NCBI GenBank assembly: GCA_022616555.1
Contig: JAKEEG010000012.1
Coordinates: 8,263-72,262 of the forward strand
Reading direction: 5' to 3'
Length of the DNA: 64,000 nt
Source of the DNA: Ignavibacteriota bacterium
Lineage (GTDB): Bacteria; Bacteroidota; Ignavibacteria; UBA10030
Below are positions 3 through 7,121 of the stretch, piece by piece (the first letter of the stretch is position 1; each line of letters begins with the position of its first letter). The position numbers and the translations under genes were made by a program. Below the pieces are notes generated by a model. The model searched no databases and had not been told where the DNA came from. It saw only the letters and a program-made list of their open reading frames with translations.

Positions 3-560
3 AAATCGCCGGAAGACCCGGCATTGTTCTTCAAACCTCAGAGCTCATTTATCGGTCATCGTGCCCCTGTGATATATCCGAAGGGCGTTGAGTACATGCA
101 CTACGAGGCGGAGCTTGTGGCCGTCATCGGCGAGCGATGCCGGCGCGTGAAGGCCGAGCATGCAGAAAAGTACATCAAAGGCTATACGATTGGCAATGAC
201 GTCACGGTGCGGGACTTCGTCAAAAATTTTTACAGGCCGCCCGTGCGCGCGAAGGGGTACGATACATTCGGACCGGTAGGACCGTATATCGTGACGGCGG
301 ATGAAATCCCCAACCCTGCGCGACTCGGCTTGCGAGCGTATGTGAACAATGAACTTAGGCAGGAAGGCAACACGGCGACCATGATCCGCTCTGTGCCGGA
401 GTTAATCGAGTTTATCTCCATGATTATGACACTCGAGCCGGGCGATATGATCTGGACGGGAACACCCAAAGGTATCTCTCACGTATACGCTGGCGATGTG
501 ATGAGATTGGAAATCGACGGCATCGGCGCGTTGGAAAATCCTGTGATTACGGAAAGTTGA
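3..560 (+). CDS. hpaG: Fumarylacetoacetate hydrolase family protein (HpaG-like isomerase/decarboxylase), 5' end outside window
   Basis: Frame is open to the window edge (KSPEDPALFFKP). FAH motifs HYEAELVAVIG, GYTIGNDVTVRD, LEPGDMIWTGTPKG. First gene of the hpa cluster. Confidence 0.85.
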   Translation, partial: KSPEDPALFFKPQSSFIGHRAPVIYPKGVEYMHYEAELVAVIGERCRRVKAEHAEKYIKGYTIGNDVTVRDFVKNFYRPPVRAKGYDTFGPVGPYIVTADEIPNPARLGLRAYVNNELRQEGNTATMIRSVPELIEFISMIMTLEPGDMIWTGTPKGISHVYAGDVMRLEIDGIGALENPVITES

Positions 561-586: not shown

Positions 587-646
587 ATTGCCACGAACTT
601 TAGTTCGTGGATAAAGACTCGTCAAATTAAATGGGGTTTTAACCCC
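587..646 (+). repeat. Left bipartite REP-like end of the transposase cassette
   Basis: ATTG + hairpin CCACGAAC-TTTA-GTTCGTGG (591-610), then GGGGTT-TT-AACCCC (633-646). Inverted counterpart at 1084-1142. Confidence 0.85.
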
Positions 647-660
647 CACATATACCCTTT

Positions 661-1092
661 ATGCCCTACGTACGAGTGTGGATTCATATGGTTTGGTCAA
701 CTAAGGACTTTAAACCAGTTTTGGAAAAAGAGTTGAGAGAAAAACTGTACGCTCACATCAGGGAGAATGCAAAGTCCAAAAATATCTATCTTGATTGCAT
801 CAACGGATTTTTCGATCATGTCCACGTGCTGATCAGTTTAAAAGCGGACCAATCGCCTGCCAAAGTAGCTCAACTATTAAAGGGAGAATCGTCTCATTGG
901 TTGAATGATCAACAACTGACACCGGTAAGGTTCGAGTGGCAAAAGGAATACTTTGCGGTGTCTGTGAGTGAATCTTCGCTTGAAAACGTCCGCTCATATA
1001 TAAACAAACAGGAAGAGCATCACAGAAAAAAGATATTTAAAGAGGAGTATAATGAATTCATGCAAAAATACGGTTTTGCTGAAAGGGGTTAA
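661..1092 (+). mobile_element. tnpA: IS200/IS605-family (RAYT-like) HUH Y1 transposase, stand-alone, no tnpB
   Basis: 143 aa. HMVWSTK N-terminus, HUH motif DHVHVL, KGESSHW, FEWQKEY, catalytic-Tyr helix VRSYINKQEEHH. Confidence 0.9.
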
Positions 1093-1142
1093 AACCCCTT
1101 CTTCCAATTAATCATTATCCCCGACCTAAAGGTCGGGGCAAT
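1084..1142 (-). repeat. Right bipartite REP-like end (inverted copy of 587-646)
   Basis: AGGGGTT-AA-AACCCCT (1084-1099, contains the TnpA stop), then CCCCGACC-TAAA-GGTCGGGG-CAAT (1119-1142). Confidence 0.85.
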
Positions 1143-1178: not shown

Positions 1179-2654
1179 ATGATCCAACACTTTATCAATA
1201 ATAAATTCGTTCCGTCTGCCGAGGGGAAGTCGTTTGAGACTCTTAACCCCACGACGAATAAGCCCATCGACAGCGTCGCTTCTGGCACAGCAGCCGATAT
1301 CGACGCGGCGGTGAAGGCAGCTCGCAAGGCATTCGATGAAGGCCCCTGGCCGCGCATGTCCGCAGACGAGCGCGGCAAATATCTCCGCAAGATTGGCGAC
1401 TTGATCATCAAACATGCTGATGAAATTGCCGAAACAGAAATAGAAGACACCGGCATTCCCTCAAGCCAAATTAAAAAGGGTGCAATCCCCCGCGCGGCGG
1501 ATAATTTTTACTTCTTCGCTGAAGAGGCAAAAAAATTAACCAGCGAGGTCTTCCCCGTCGGCGATAAGTTTATGAATTACACCGTGCGCCGCCCTGTTGG
1601 AGTGGCGGGACTCATCACGCCGTGGAACACACCGTTCATGCTCGAAACGTGGAAAACCGCCCCATGCCTCGCGGGCGGCAACACGTGCGTGTTGAAGCCA
1701 GCAGAGTGGTCCCCCCTTTCAGCGGACAAACTCGCGCGTATCATTCAGGAAGCTGACATCCCGCCCGGTGTATTCAACCTTGTGCACGGGTTCGGCGAGT
1801 CGGCTGGAGCCTCGCTCGTCGCGCATCCGCAAGTGCAGTTGATTTCCTTCACAGGCGAAACGAGTACCGGCAAGGAGATCATCCGTAATGGCGCAGGCAC
1901 GCTGAAGCGATTCTCGATGGAACTGGGCGGCAAGTCGCCTACGATTGTCTTCAATGATGCTGATTTCGACCGCGCGCTCGATGGGGCGACGTTCCAGGTA
2001 TACTCGCTCAACGGCGAGCGCTGCACAGCAGGCTCGCGGTTATTGCTTCAACAGGGCATATATGATAAATTCGTCAGCGCGCTCGAAGCACGCGTGAAAA
2101 ATATCCGCGTTGGCGATCCACACGAAGCGCAGACGGAAGTAGGTCCGTTGATCCACCCTGAGCACTGGCAGCGTGTCCGTGCGTATATGGATGTCGCCCG
2201 TCAAGAAGGCGCGAAAATTGCTGTGGGCGGCGAGCGTCCCACGGGTATGACGGACGGAAATTATTTTGCTCCCACTCTTATTACCGGCGTGAAGAACAGC
2301 ATGCGCATAGCGCAGGAGGAGGTCTTCGGTCCGGTGCTCGTCGTGATTCCGTTTAAAGACGACGAAGAAGCTCTCCGCATTGCCAACGACATTCAATACG
2401 GGCTTGCCGCGTATATCTGGACGAGCAATGTTGCGCGCGGCCAACACATTGCGGAACGCATTGAATCCGGGCTCGCGTGGGTGAACTCTCATAACGTTCG
2501 CGACCTGCGGACGCCCTTCGGCGGCTCCAAGAACAGCGGTATTGGGCGCGAAGGCGGGCACTATAGTTTTGAATTCTACATGGAAATGGCAACAGTACAC
2601 GTCGCACTTGGCAATCATCATATCCCAACCATGGGTAAAGAAAACAAGAAGTAA
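1179..2654 (+). CDS. hpaE: 5-carboxymethyl-2-hydroxymuconate semialdehyde dehydrogenase (ALDH family)
   Basis: ALDH motifs PWN, FTGET, MELGGKSP, catalytic Cys in GERCTAGSR, EEVFGPV. hpa context. Confidence 0.9.
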   Translation: MIQHFINNKFVPSAEGKSFETLNPTTNKPIDSVASGTAADIDAAVKAARKAFDEGPWPRMSADERGKYLRKIGDLIIKHADEIAETEIEDTGIPSSQIKKGAIPRAADNFYFFAEEAKKLTSEVFPVGDKFMNYTVRRPVGVAGLITPWNTPFMLETWKTAPCLAGGNTCVLKPAEWSPLSADKLARIIQEADIPPGVFNLVHGFGESAGASLVAHPQVQLISFTGETSTGKEIIRNGAGTLKRFSMELGGKSPTIVFNDADFDRALDGATFQVYSLNGERCTAGSRLLLQQGIYDKFVSALEARVKNIRVGDPHEAQTEVGPLIHPEHWQRVRAYMDVARQEGAKIAVGGERPTGMTDGNYFAPTLITGVKNSMRIAQEEVFGPVLVVIPFKDDEEALRIANDIQYGLAAYIWTSNVARGQHIAERIESGLAWVNSHNVRDLRTPFGGSKNSGIGREGGHYSFEFYMEMATVHVALGNHHIPTMGKENKK

Positions 2655-4172: not shown

Positions 4173-4204
4173 GAGACCCCCTATAGTCCCCCTAAGAGGG
4201 GGAC
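4173..4204 (+). repeat. Left inverted hairpin repeat of the DUF559 cassette
   Basis: GAGACCCCCT (4173-4182), then hairpin GTCCCCCT-AAG-AGGGGGAC (4186-4204). Confidence 0.85.
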
Positions 4205-4224
4205 ACGTAGGATTGTAGAGTACT

Positions 4225-4623
4225 ATGAAACACAAACATCTCTCAGAGTATACAACGGCTAATGTTCCTATTGCACGAGTGCTTCGAGGGAATATGACCG
4301 TTGCGGAACGAAAGTTGTGGTCTCTACTGCGAAAAAATCAGCTTGGAGTCAGATTCCGGAGACAGGTTCCTCTACACGGTTATGTGCTAGATTTCTATTG
4401 TCCAAAAGCCAAACTTGATGTTGAACTCGATGGCAGCCAACACTACACAAGTCAGGGAGTGCGAAAGGACAAAGAACGAGACAATGATTTACAGAGAGAA
4501 GGGATAGCGGTTCTTCGTTTTGCATCTTCGGAGGTGTTCCAAAACCTTGAGGGTGTTATTCAGGCAATCATCAATGTAACTGAAGAGCAAATCGCACAGA
4601 AAAAAAATCTCTCCCCCTCTTAG
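4225..4623 (+). CDS. DUF559 / Vsr-like endonuclease-domain protein
   Basis: 132 aa. LRGNMTVAERKLWSLLR, FRRQVPLHGYVLDFYC, VELDGSQH, D..L...G..VLRF pattern. Confidence 0.88.
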   Translation: MKHKHLSEYTTANVPIARVLRGNMTVAERKLWSLLRKNQLGVRFRRQVPLHGYVLDFYCPKAKLDVELDGSQHYTSQGVRKDKERDNDLQREGIAVLRFASSEVFQNLEGVIQAIINVTEEQIAQKKNLSPS

Positions 4624-4645
4624 GGGGAGACCAAGAGGGGGTCTC
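4610..4645 (-). repeat. Right inverted hairpin repeat of the DUF559 cassette
   Basis: Hairpin TCTCCCCCT-CTT-AGGGGGAGA (4610-4630, contains the stop TAG), then AGGGGGTCTC (4636-4645), the exact reverse complement of 4173-4182. Confidence 0.85.
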
Positions 4646-4690: not shown

Positions 4691-5257
4691 ATGAGCGAAA
4701 TCATAGACCATCGCGCCTATAGACAAACTGTCGGACAATTTGCCACCGGCGTTTCGGTGATTGCGACCGAAACAAACGGCCAAGTGCACGGCATGACCGC
4801 AAATGCACTCACGTCGCTCTCGCTCGACCCAATGCTGATTCTCTTCTGCGTGGATAAGCGCGCGAAGATGACGGAGTTCTTGAAACATACCGAGGGGTTC
4901 TCAATCAATTTTTTGCGCGAAGACCAGCAGGCGCTCTCCACATACTTTGCGGGCGGGTGGAAACAGGAGAAAGCCCCACCCTTTCGCTTTGTGCCGTGGA
5001 CAGTCTGTCCGCGCCTTGAAGGCTGCGCGGCGGCAATCGCATGCAAACTACACGAGATGGTCGAAGGCGGCGACCACTGGATCGTCATCGGCAAGGTGCA
5101 GGCGCTCCACAAGGGCATCGAACCGCGCTACCCGCTGGTTTTTCACGGCGGGATGTATTGCAAACTCGACCATCGCGATCGCCAACCAGCTCCGCCTGAA
5201 CTCGACAAAGGCACTGCGGAAGTGGGAGTCTTCCTTGACCCATGGAAAAACGAATGA
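4691..5257 (+). CDS. hpaC: Flavin reductase, reductase component of 4-HPA monooxygenase
   Basis: YRQTVGQFATGVSVI, GMTANALTSLSLDP, EGGDHWIVIG. ATG 4691 preferred over the TTG start in the ORF track. Confidence 0.88.
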   Translation: MSEIIDHRAYRQTVGQFATGVSVIATETNGQVHGMTANALTSLSLDPMLILFCVDKRAKMTEFLKHTEGFSINFLREDQQALSTYFAGGWKQEKAPPFRFVPWTVCPRLEGCAAAIACKLHEMVEGGDHWIVIGKVQALHKGIEPRYPLVFHGGMYCKLDHRDRQPAPPELDKGTAEVGVFLDPWKNE

Positions 5258-6240
5258 ACATACCCTTTAACATCACCCGTACAGCGCATTTGGAATTTCG
5301 CGTCACCGACCTCGAGCGCGCGAAAGCATTCTACGTCGATGTCCTCGGCTTTGTTGAAACCGCGCGCGATAAGAATAGACTCTATCTCGGCGGATATGAA
5401 GAGCGTGACCTCTATAGCCTTGTGTTGCGCAAGGCAGACTCACCCGGCGTGGGACATATTGCGTTTCGCGTCGCCAACCCGGAAGACTTGCAGCATCTTG
5501 CCAAGCTATACGAGCAGAACGGCTGTGCGATAAAATGGATAGATGAAGGATTCGAAGAGGGCCAGGGTAAAGCCTTACGCGTACAGGATCCGTCCGGATT
5601 GCCGATAGAATTTTTCCACCAGATCGCTCAGCGTGAGCGACTGCTACAGCGCTATGACCTTTACCGCGGCGCACACATCATGCGGCTCGACCATTTCAAC
5701 TGCCAGGTACCTGATGTGCAAAAGGCGTACGACTGGTTTACGCAGAAACTCAGCTTCACCTGCTCCGAGTACACGGTGTCGCAAACCGACAAGCTCTGGG
5801 CGACTTGGCTCCACCGCAAGCAGGATGTGCATGACATCGCGCTCATGAACGGCATCGGTCCGCGTGTGCACCACGGTGGCTTCTGGGTGAATGATCAACT
5901 GAGCGTGCTGAAGGCTTGCGATGTGCTCGCAGCGGCAGGGATGGTCAGCAGTATCGAGCGCGGACCCGGCAGGCACGGACTGAGCAATGCGTTTTTTCTC
6001 TACTTGCGCGATCCCGATGGCAACAGAATCGAGCTATATACAGGAGATTATATCATCGCAGACCCGGATTGGAAACCAATTAAGTGGGATATCAACGACC
6101 CGCGGCGGGCGACGTTCTGGGGACACACGCCGCCACCGAGCTGGTTTAACGACGCCTCGCTTGTGGAGGATATTCAGACAGGAAAGTTTATCCCGACCAC
6201 CGAACCAAAGCAGAAAGACCGCCCGGATTTTGTGACCTAA
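5254..6240 (+). CDS. hpaD: 3,4-dihydroxyphenylacetate 2,3-dioxygenase (VOC/type I extradiol)
   Basis: RLDHFN, HDIAL, PRVHHGGF, IERGPGRHG, YLRDPDGNRIELY. ATGA overlap with the hpaC stop. Confidence 0.9.
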   Translation: MNIPFNITRTAHLEFRVTDLERAKAFYVDVLGFVETARDKNRLYLGGYEERDLYSLVLRKADSPGVGHIAFRVANPEDLQHLAKLYEQNGCAIKWIDEGFEEGQGKALRVQDPSGLPIEFFHQIAQRERLLQRYDLYRGAHIMRLDHFNCQVPDVQKAYDWFTQKLSFTCSEYTVSQTDKLWATWLHRKQDVHDIALMNGIGPRVHHGGFWVNDQLSVLKACDVLAAAGMVSSIERGPGRHGLSNAFFLYLRDPDGNRIELYTGDYIIADPDWKPIKWDINDPRRATFWGHTPPPSWFNDASLVEDIQTGKFIPTTEPKQKDRPDFVT

Positions 6241-6266
6241 GACCTCTATCGATCACAATGTTTTGG

Positions 6267-6327
6267 GTAGCCGCAGGCTTCAGCCTGCGCAATAGCGACG
6301 ACAACGCAACCTAAAGGTTGCGACTAC
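6267..6327. repeat. Inverted GTAG-type REP doublet (REPIN/BIME-like) between convergent genes
   Basis: GTAG-C-CGCAGGC-TTCA-GCCTGCG on + (6267-6289) and GTAG-T-CGCAACC-TTTA-GGTTGCG on - (6305-6327). Confidence 0.85.
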
Positions 6328-6335
6328 CTCAATCA

Positions 6336-7121
6336 TCACGCGTAAAACTCAGGCCTTCTATCATCCAGCAAATGATTACGGGGAGTGACGTTTTTGTTGT
6401 CCGTCACTGTAAGATCGACGTCTTTGACGGCAATCTCAGGCTTATCGGCAGGAGCGCGATGGAGTATTTCTCCACGCGGTGAAGTAATCTGACTTTGCCC
6501 AATGTATGTTAGCGGAGCGACACCGCGGTTTTCGGTGCCAATGCGGTTTGCCGTCGCTGCGAAGACTCGGTTCTCCAGGCAGCGCGTCGGCATACTGTTC
6601 GGGCAATTGGGCAGCACAAGATTTGATGGATGTGCGATGAGTTGCGCGCCTTTCAAGGCGAGCGTACGGGCGCTTTCGGGAAAGTACCAATCGAAGCAGA
6701 CCATGATGCCGACCTTCCCGTGAGGCGTGTCAAAAACCTGAAACGGCTTATCGCCCGGGGCGAAAAATAATTTCTCCCGGTCGAAGAGATGAATTTTTCG
6801 GTAGAGTCCAACAGTGCCGTCGTGGCCGATAATACCCGCTGAGTTGTAGAGTTTACCGTTGCTCTTCTCGGCAAATCCGTACACAACATAACTCCGCTGC
6901 TCGTGCGCAAATTGCTCCAACTCCTTAAAAGTTACTCCTGTACGGAAAGGCTCTGCGAGGTGTTGTACTTCTTCTACGGTGGCAAAGTTATATCCGGTGG
7001 CAAATAGTTCAGGCAGCACATACAAGTCCGCTTGAGTGGACTGCATGAGTTGCAAGGCTTCAGCAATGTTCTTTGACTTTTCTCCGAATGTTGGGTTTGT
7101 CTGAACGACAGCAAGTTTCAT
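6336..7121 (-). CDS. Carbon-nitrogen hydrolase (nitrilase superfamily)
   Basis: Catalytic triad motifs LPELF, YRKIHLF, VCFDWYFPE. Confidence 0.88.
   Translation of the reverse strand: MKLAVVQTNPTFGEKSKNIAEALQLMQSTQADLYVLPELFATGYNFATVEEVQHLAEPFRTGVTFKELEQFAHEQRSYVVYGFAEKSNGKLYNSAGIIGHDGTVGLYRKIHLFDREKLFFAPGDKPFQVFDTPHGKVGIMVCFDWYFPESARTLALKGAQLIAHPSNLVLPNCPNSMPTRCLENRVFAATANRIGTENRGVAPLTYIGQSQITSPRGEILHRAPADKPEIAVKDVDLTVTDNKNVTPRNHLLDDRRPEFYA

Follow-up and report, generated by a model that had tools for sequence, protein, structure and literature searches.

In the insertion sequences (IS) IS608 and ISDra2, and in the TnpA_REP proteins associated with repetitive extragenic palindromes (REPs), a hairpin together with a 5' tetranucleotide directs the cleavage of single-stranded DNA (ssDNA) (PMC6006769, PMC8266576). 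The loop bases are essential for the recognition of group-3 REPs (PMC8266576). The ends of IS200/IS605 elements consist of two different hairpins on the same strand (PMC6006769). TIRYTs are Y1 genes flanked by inverted repeats, and their proteins fall into class-2 subclasses with helix-turn-helix (HTH) domains (PMC6006769). TnpA_Y1 subclass 1.2, which is placed with class 1 (IS200), has the motifs DH[IV]H, WQ and Y---Q--HH, a length of ~148 aa, a short core and a conserved C-terminal tail; it has been described as low in copy number, without REPs and without IS-type ends, and is not considered an IS (PMC6006769). Since neither REPs nor IS-type ends are listed for subclass 1.2, it has no known substrate. 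The automatic REP search in that study (Quentin et al. 2018, BMC Genomics 19:475; PMC6006769) demanded a GT[AG]G foot, and a repeat with an ATTG tag would therefore have escaped. The locus reported here is a 556 bp cassette at positions 587–1142 of a stretch of DNA from an Ignavibacteriota bacterium (GCA_022616555.1, contig JAKEEG010000012.1, positions 8,263–72,262, forward strand); the term window is used for this whole stretch of 64,000 nt. The cassette has a tnpA-like gene between two inverted modules, each of which consists of a tag and two hairpins. It probably represents a resident, REPtron-like, gene-bearing master copy of an undescribed partnership between a Y1 nuclease and a hairpin module.

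The cassette and its protein

The cassette begins with the tag ATTG and ends with the tag CAAT. Its GC content is ~39%, compared with ~56% in the flanks. The two ends are inverted repeats, with 31 nt arms that are 84% complementary and 14 nt arms that are 100% complementary. A preliminary description of the locus had reported bipartite, inverted and tagged ends, with the stop codon of the gene inside the right hairpin, and all of these elements are present (Table 1). Folding of the ssDNA shows that each module forms exactly its two hairpins, with z values of -3.4 to -5.0. Two positions distinguish the left outer stem from the right one, each with a compensating change at the partner base, which agrees with the earlier proposal that structure is kept over sequence. 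Only when the two ends are taken from opposite strands do the tag and the TTYA loop have the same sequence; an mRNA would carry UAAA loops and a 3' tag at its right end. The symmetry is at the DNA level, with the tag coming first at each end on that end's own strand. Immediately outside the element is an 8 nt inverted match (ATCATTGA / TCAATGAT, positions 575–582 and 1176–1183), whose right copy overlaps the hpaE start; this may be chance, as ~0.05 is expected for such short flanks.

Table 1. Positions of the cassette, its parts and the neighboring genes in the window
Feature	Positions	Strand	Remarks
Whole cassette	587..1142	+	Similarity between window and locus L001 begins exactly at ATTG and stops exactly at CAAT
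Left 5' tag ATTG	587..590	+	Family consensus gAATTG; variants ATAG/TTTG/GTTG/CTTG
Left outer hairpin CCACGAAC-TTTA-GTTCGTGG	591..610	+	8 bp stem, 4 nt loop
Left spacer, 22 nt, A-rich	611..632	+	Sequence variable, length constrained
Left inner hairpin GGGGT-TTTA-ACCCC, 5 bp stem	633..646	+	Ends 14 nt upstream of ATG
tnpA-like gene, HUH-Y1 nuclease, 143 aa	661..1092	+	Pfam Y1_Tnp
Right inner hairpin, bottom strand GGGGT-TTTA-ACCCC	1085..1098	-	TAA stop (1090–1092) within the loop
Right spacer, 20 nt	1099..1118	-	
Right outer hairpin, top strand CCCCGACC-TAAA-GGTCGGGG, bottom-strand loop TTTA	1119..1138	-	
Right tag, top strand CAAT, bottom strand ATTG	1139..1142	-	
Left neighbor, hpaG-like FAA-hydrolase gene, 3' part; outside the element, marks the insertion site	3..560	+	Same neighbor in L001
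Right neighbor, hpaE, 5-carboxymethyl-2-hydroxymuconate semialdehyde dehydrogenase; outside the element	1179..2654	+	TIGR02299, 757 bits (cut-off 638)

The gene encodes an intact HUH-Y1 enzyme that is under selection (see below). The protein matches Pfam Y1_Tnp (PF01797) with an E value of 1e-25 and there is no tnpB, which bears out the earlier view of a stand-alone HUH-Y1 gene between inverted tagged hairpins. It has the motifs D52-H53-V54-H55, W93-Q94 and Y113-INK-Q117-EE-H120-H121. Residues H53, H55, W93, Q94, Y113, Q117 and H121 are among those that are invariant across 25 homologues, and the C-terminal tail is conserved in the same set. The tyrosine motif is Y-x3-Q-x2-HH (YINKQEEHH) and not YIxxNP. 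The NCBIfam model transpos_IS200 gives 68 bits, above its cut-off of 55, and the model REP_Tyr_transpos (NF047646) gives 26 bits, below its cut-off of 80. A search of PDB with a profile of the 25 homologues finds the TnpA proteins of ISDra2 and IS608 at E ~1e-11 and does not retrieve 4ER8, the E. coli REP-associated tyrosine transposase (RAYT), at E <= 1. With an AlphaFold 2 model of TnpA (pLDDT 84), Foldseek ranks 1–29 are TnpA proteins of IS608, ISDra2 and IS200 (E 3e-8 to 3e-6) and 4ER8 is ranked 30th (E 2e-4). By sequence, TnpA is IS200-like and is not a RAYT. Its motifs, length and C-terminal tail fit TnpA_Y1 subclass 1.2, an assignment that rests on the motifs published by Quentin et al.

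Conservation of the two-hairpin module and gene-less copies

Homologues of TnpA number >3400 at the cluster level. Species-representative genomes have at least 561 matches, which are found in Bacteroidota, Ignavibacteriota, Acidobacteriota, KSB1, Zixibacteria, Cloacimonadota, Marinimicrobia and others. These proteins resemble subclass 1.2 as described in motifs, size, tail, low copy number, occurrence in Bacteroidetes and kinship to the IS200 TnpA without IS behavior. They differ from that description in their wider range, which adds Ignavibacteriota, Acidobacteriota, KSB1, Zixibacteria, Cloacimonadota and Marinimicrobia, in that nearly every member examined has tagged two-hairpin flanks, and in that gene-less copies exist. 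No relatives that would indicate phage carriage were found in viral contigs. In three Flavobacterium loci (L060, L070 and L071, positions ~5030–6420), which are probably orthologous, a tnpA homologue is ~1.6 kb upstream of a CRISPR array with 46 nt repeats (Rfam CRISPR-DR50).

The flanks of the gene were compared among the best 80 loci. Both the tag ATTG and the second hairpin, noted in the preliminary description for this locus, prove to be features of the family, and the two-hairpin module accompanies homologues in Bacteroidota, Ignavibacteriota, Acidobacteriota and further phyla. The tag is ATTG in 51 of 104 modules and otherwise ATAG, TTTG, GTTG or CTTG, so that most fit N-T-[TA]-G; GTAG is rare (e.g., locus L090). 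The outer hairpin has an 8 bp stem that almost always starts with CC and a loop of TTTA or TTCA, and the inner hairpin has the form GG(C/T)-TTTA-(G/A)CC. Between the outer hairpin and the 3 bp core of the inner one are 19–33 nt, with a mode of 23–24. In right modules the stop codon is within the inner loop (16 of 40) or 2–6 nt before the inner hairpin (17 of 40).

Seventy-six loci could be assessed on both sides of the gene. A strict rule, applied within 200 nt of the gene, finds a module in 69 of them, on both sides in 36 and on one side in 33, and in none of 1520 shuffled flanks; the module goes with the gene family. Of the seven loci left empty by this rule, at least six have modules according to a covariance model. 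A simple scan of 456 kb reveals 201 tagged hairpins, with 0.6 in shuffled sequences, and 151 tagged hairpins that are followed by an inner hairpin, with 0 in shuffled sequences. Rfam has no family at threshold for the window region, where the best score is 22 bits against a gathering score of 100, or for the modules in 20 loci. No description of such two-hairpin modules was found in the searchable literature on RAYT/REPIN, TnpAY1 and IS200/MITE topics (MITE, miniature inverted-repeat transposable element) or under the literal repeats.

An alignment of 70 modules shows that the structure, and not the sequence of the stems, is conserved. The aligned positions are paired in 94% of the cells, and 12 of the 13 pairs have changed on both sides (8/8 in the outer stem and 4/5 in the inner stem), so that the compensatory changes seen within the cassette extend to the family. 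None of 500 shuffles reaches the observed pairing values and no slid register comes close. Because the aligned hairpins had been pre-selected for pairing, what counts as evidence is the variety of base-pair types within an unchanging geometry, tag and loop. Where both modules were found, the left and right stems are unlike in 21 of 25 loci; each hairpin is perfect and the two ends are mutually mismatched, as in the window.

Modules also occur in larger numbers than two per gene, and without the gene. The covariance model (R1) gives 292 matches at E <= 0.01 in the 80 loci. Most of the modules found by the model or the scan are within 500 nt of the gene, with left-type and right-type modules alternating in the manner of a REPtron-like array, and some are 1.5–7 kb from the gene on the same contig. 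Locus L199 has seven modules within 11 kb, two of which lie 6–7 kb from the gene; they have a common tag TGCTGAAATTG and inner hairpin, and their outer stems vary in the apical 3 bp, always with compensation. A scan of metagenome contigs for outer hairpins of the window type finds at least 120 loci, and among the 120 listed there are 105 without a tnpA homologue and 15 with one. Forty-five of the loci listed show gene-less doublets of 120–245 bp that have exact ATTG...CAAT termini and keep both inner hairpins with a short linker between them; such doublets represent the cassette without its open reading frame (ORF). These data demonstrate multiplicity of the modules, as distinct from a REP-like abundance. 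In locus L083 (7960–9745) there are four nearly identical doublets of 120–121 bp with one common right flank, GACAGGGTTTGACGGG; because of this common flank, either the repeated unit exceeds the doublet or the doublet is part of another repeat.

The doublets are similar to bacterial MITEs (Nezha, Correia, RUP) in that gene-less copies of 120–245 bp keep both ends. The difference is that the ends here are local tagged hairpins and not plain terminal inverted repeats (TIRs) bound by a DDE enzyme, and no target-site duplication is seen. Nezha was considered as a relative and rejected; it is a TIR/DR element and is unrelated. A classical pair of MITE and DDE enzyme was also rejected, as the enzyme is HUH-Y1 and there are no target-site duplications around the cassette or the doublets.

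The hpaG–hpaE junction

The cassette is located between hpaG and hpaE, and the order hpaG-tnpA-hpaE is also found in locus L001, from a Bacteroidota metagenome-assembled genome (TnpA 88% identical), and in a relative in sequencing run X4. A third locus, L163 (TnpA 87% identical), has the same three-module arrangement as L001; its 2561 nt contig is apparently the source of the HpaE homologue P0123 (87% identical). The third module is of the left type and decayed, and is situated beyond the cassette's right end, in front of hpaE (L001 3521–3585; L163 ~965); the window and X4 lack it.

A comparison of the window with L001 shows that the hairpins are kept and the spacers have diverged; the right inner stem has a compensated change from T-A to C-G. 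The nonsynonymous (dN) and synonymous (dS) substitution rates and their ratio (omega) are alike for tnpA (dN 0.063, dS 1.69, omega 0.037), hpaG (0.069, 1.63 and 0.042) and hpaE (0.077, 2.64 and 0.029), from which it follows that tnpA has co-diverged with its neighbors under purifying selection. The relative in X4 has 50 differences from the window over positions 550–1200, and the 40 that are listed are all inside the ORF (705–1047). Both modules, 128 nt in total, are identical between the two at an ORF divergence of ~10%, for which the chance probability is roughly 1e-6. The GC content at third codon positions of tnpA is 0.44 both in the window (661–1092) and in L001 (3001–3432), and that of hpaG and hpaE is 0.61–0.69; the low-GC composition of tnpA shows no drift towards the host despite saturated synonymous sites between window and L001. 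In this lineage the cassette is solitary, old, vertically inherited and under purifying selection.

Relatives with other states of the junction were found through HpaE. As suggested in the preliminary description, the junctions were compared, and the empty site is defined by loci L203, L206 and L207, where hpaG and hpaE overlap or are 5 nt apart. Locus L201 has a solo left-type module with a disrupted loop. The solo module in L204 is a mosaic of the first and third modules of L001 and has mismatches. Recombination between modules in direct repeat, with loss of the gene, would account for this mosaic; alternatively, it represents the ancestral state, and the gene-bearing part was added later. 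At this junction, solo modules decay and modules beside tnpA stay perfect.

The junction seems to collect small elements. In L202 (2540–3000) it holds an unrelated, repeat-rich insert of ~460 nt with palindromes of the type GGGATCCCGC. A second hairpin-bracketed cassette is present in the same operon, at window positions 4173–4645. It consists of a gene for a DUF559 protein (Vsr-like endonuclease fold; 4225–4623) between hpaB and a flavin-reductase gene, with GAGACCCCCT and TCCCCCT-AAG-AGGGGGA in the left flank and TCTCCCCCT-CTT-AGGGGGAGA and AGGGGGTCTC in the right flank, and its TAG stop codon is inside the right hairpin. In L202, L203 and L207 the reductase gene directly follows hpaB without a DUF559 cassette between them. 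The hairpin pair of this second cassette is also found in the hpaG–hpaE spacer of L204.

Proposed partnership, alternative readings and significance

In the proposed partnership, the partners would be an IS200-like HUH-Y1 ssDNA nuclease of subclass 1.2 and a cognate 64 nt module, which consists of a 5' ATTG-type tag, an 8 bp hairpin with a TTYA loop, a spacer of ~22 nt and a short second hairpin with the same loop. One module stands on each side of the gene, and the two are inverted relative to each other, so that the tag leads on the respective strand. Elsewhere in the family two modules are also joined without a gene as MITE- or REPIN-like doublets, or form REPtron-like arrays beside the gene. 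In the present lineage the cassette would have entered the hpaG–hpaE junction of the homoprotocatechuate operon, probably from a low-GC donor, and vertical inheritance has since kept it as a solitary copy, with purifying selection on both gene and modules.

By analogy with IS608/ISDra2 and TnpA_REP, the protein may bind the tag, the loop and the hairpin while the DNA is transiently single-stranded. It is probably an IS608-like dimer, and its two hairpin sites could take the outer and the inner hairpin. Y113, together with a metal site formed by H53, H55 and Q117, would cleave next to the tag, and rejoining of the strands after cleavage would move or copy the DNA bounded by modules. The mismatch between left and right stems may keep each end folded on itself and prevent pairing between the ends. 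The conserved loop and perfect palindrome of the module suggest a resemblance to the recognition of group-3 REPs. Binding, cleavage site and oligomeric state are argued here by analogy, and any benefit to the host is likewise an inference.

In the source metagenomes the cassette is on one unitig at single-copy depth, and there is one contig per module in four runs. The patterns of the outer and inner hairpins have no second occurrence in the 64 kb window (0.00–0.02 expected from shuffles), a profile search of its six-frame translation reveals no second Y1 gene, and the source metagenomes have no second contig with >=80% similarity to either module. A single copy agrees with the proposed resident element. 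Several observations weigh against the proposal. A population of the hairpins, for which the preliminary description had suggested a genome-wide count, is not seen in this genome, and, its own flanks aside, the enzyme lacks a visible population of substrates. The low copy number described for subclass 1.2 is seen here and in an isolate of Runella limosa, where the locus is unique at >=80% identity, a level at which diverged copies are invisible to the method. The contigs of the source metagenomes revealed neither excision joints nor alleles with an empty site, and none of the RNA runs that were looked through for expression contains the stretch. Several of the metagenome copies have common flanks; such doublets may derive from orthologous loci or belong to larger repeats, and they cannot be counted as independent insertions. 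The flanks of the cassette and the 45 doublets have no common motif and no target-site duplication, no target rule can be derived from them, and the bases 5' of the tag vary between sites (TATG, TTAC, GACA and others). Selfish transposition by itself does not account for the purifying selection seen on an element that is solitary and apparently immobile. The solitary copy may be retained under selection because of a role for the host or because it stays active in cis.

A different kind of doublet is present in the window at positions 6265–6330, between convergent genes. It consists of two inverted, GTAG-tagged hairpins 15 nt apart (CGCAGGC-TTCA-GCCTGCG and, on the bottom strand, CGCAACC-TTTA-GGTTGCG) and is REPIN-like. 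Its hairpin geometry, stem length and TTYA loops are like those of the tnpA modules, but it has the GTAG tag and no inner hairpins. It may be cognate to this TnpA or to another enzyme, a point that is likewise counted against the proposed partnership.

Four other readings were considered. The first is that the cassette is an ordinary autonomous IS of the IS200 group that transposed recently into the operon, with hairpins that are the usual subterminal structures of the left and right ends. The transpos_IS200 score and the solved structures nearest to TnpA favor this reading, as do the compact unit with a GC content below that of its surroundings and its occurrence at the site in some relatives but not in others. 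Members of IS200/IS605 (IS200, IS608, ISDra2) also have the HUH-Y1 fold with its catalytic residues and a hairpin with a tetranucleotide at the guide position, and IS200 itself is a compact element of ~0.6–0.7 kb with two stem-loops at its left end. However, the ends of the cassette are true, mirror-image inverted repeats with the tag on opposite strands, whereas IS200/IS605 ends are non-inverted, same-strand hairpins that are processed on one strand, and those elements occur in several near-identical copies whereas this gene is solitary. The insertion is orthologous in three diverged genomes, and with saturated dS and an omega of 0.04 it is not recent. Subclass 1.2, furthermore, has been described without IS properties (PMC6006769). 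A recent IS200 insertion is therefore an unlikely explanation.

The second reading, under which the preliminary description had filed the locus as a RAYT/REP subfamily, is that of a canonical RAYT (TnpA_REP) with its REPs. The RAYTs of E. coli, Pseudomonas and Stenotrophomonas (4ER8; PMC8266576) are likewise single-copy, vertically inherited Y1 genes, and they have inverted flanking hairpins with a conserved 5' tetranucleotide, hairpin arrays adjoining the gene and gene-less inverted doublets. The group-3 REPs have perfect short palindromes with conserved loop positions (PMC8266576), and several homologues of TnpA are labelled 'REP element-mobilizing transposase RayT' by JGI. The gene-less REP- and REPIN-like copies in other genomes support one part of the earlier claim; the part that concerns the protein is not supported, as TnpA falls far below the RAYT cut-off and 4ER8 is missing from the profile search and ranks low by fold. 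The protein is class 1, with Q and not N after the tyrosine, and subclass 1.2 has been placed with class 1 (PMC6006769). The tag is ATTG or ATAG in place of the GTAG (GT[AG]G) of RAYTs, the unit has two hairpins ~22 nt apart, and left and right stems are systematically different. Many dispersed copies of the hairpin, as in RAYT/REP systems, were not found in this genome, where there is no further module and the GTAG-tagged doublet lacks inner hairpins; other genomes have local arrays and some dispersed copies. A canonical RAYT is thus quite improbable. The TIRYTs have inverted flanks as well, but their proteins are class 2 with HTH domains and TnpA is class 1. The cassette is RAYT- or REPtron-like in behavior and fails as a RAYT by sequence; its protein is IS200-like, and it fails as an IS200/IS605 element on ends and copy number.

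In a third reading the hairpins are not DNA recognition sites and act at the level of RNA or transcription, as insulating terminators, in occlusion of the start site or as stabilizers of the mRNA. The positions of the inner hairpins, just before the ATG and over the stop codon, are consistent with such a role, as is the conservation of modules beside tnpA at a site where solo modules decay. In IS200, a hairpin at the left end is a terminator and a stem-loop occludes the start site (PMC4513863). The symmetry, however, is at the DNA level and yields UAAA loops and a 3' tag at the right end of the mRNA; a sense-strand scan for intrinsic terminators picks out none of the hairpins; and doublets that lack the gene but retain two intact ends are found a long way from any tnpA. 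A scan for an upstream sigma-70-like site, which does not cover promoters of the Bacteroidota type, found none. An RNA-level role in place of DNA recognition also has little probability. The fourth reading, that the palindromes arose by chance or are ordinary intergenic hairpins with no relation to the gene, has only the general abundance of small intergenic palindromes in its favor and is refuted by the shuffled controls for the window, the flanks and the 456 kb scan and by a geometry, loop and tag that are fixed across phyla.

The resident, gene-bearing master copy with its own module is thus the preferred interpretation of the cassette. Subclass 1.2 was previously without known partner repeats, and the module is undescribed within the literature searched. 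In a broader proposal, for which the case is evenly balanced, the subclass 1.2 nucleases and the ATTG-tagged modules form a separate partnership of hairpin repeat and Y1 protein beside the two experimentally studied RAYT/REP groups. It would be rooted in the IS200 clade and occur in the FCB group and Acidobacteriota, with master copies, REPIN-like doublets and a recognition code of its own, and would be intermediate between a selfish IS200 and a domesticated RAYT. If this is true, the code would consist of the tag, the loop, the 8 bp stem, the 22 nt spacing and the second hairpin, unlike those of IS608 and REP.

The module is a candidate substrate for subclass 1.2, and its function is directly testable with oligonucleotides. 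The natural covariation, with hundreds of modules in which the stems vary and the tag, loop, stem length and spacing are fixed, maps the determinants of recognition beforehand. In annotation pipelines such genes receive the label 'IS200/IS605 family transposase', a name that implies an active IS, and the modules are left unannotated. In the present lineage an IS200-like enzyme is single-copy, vertically inherited and under selection in the manner of a RAYT, and its flanking hairpins are conserved above synonymous sites while solo ones decay. This type of locus bears on how selfish single-strand transposons turn into resident genes.

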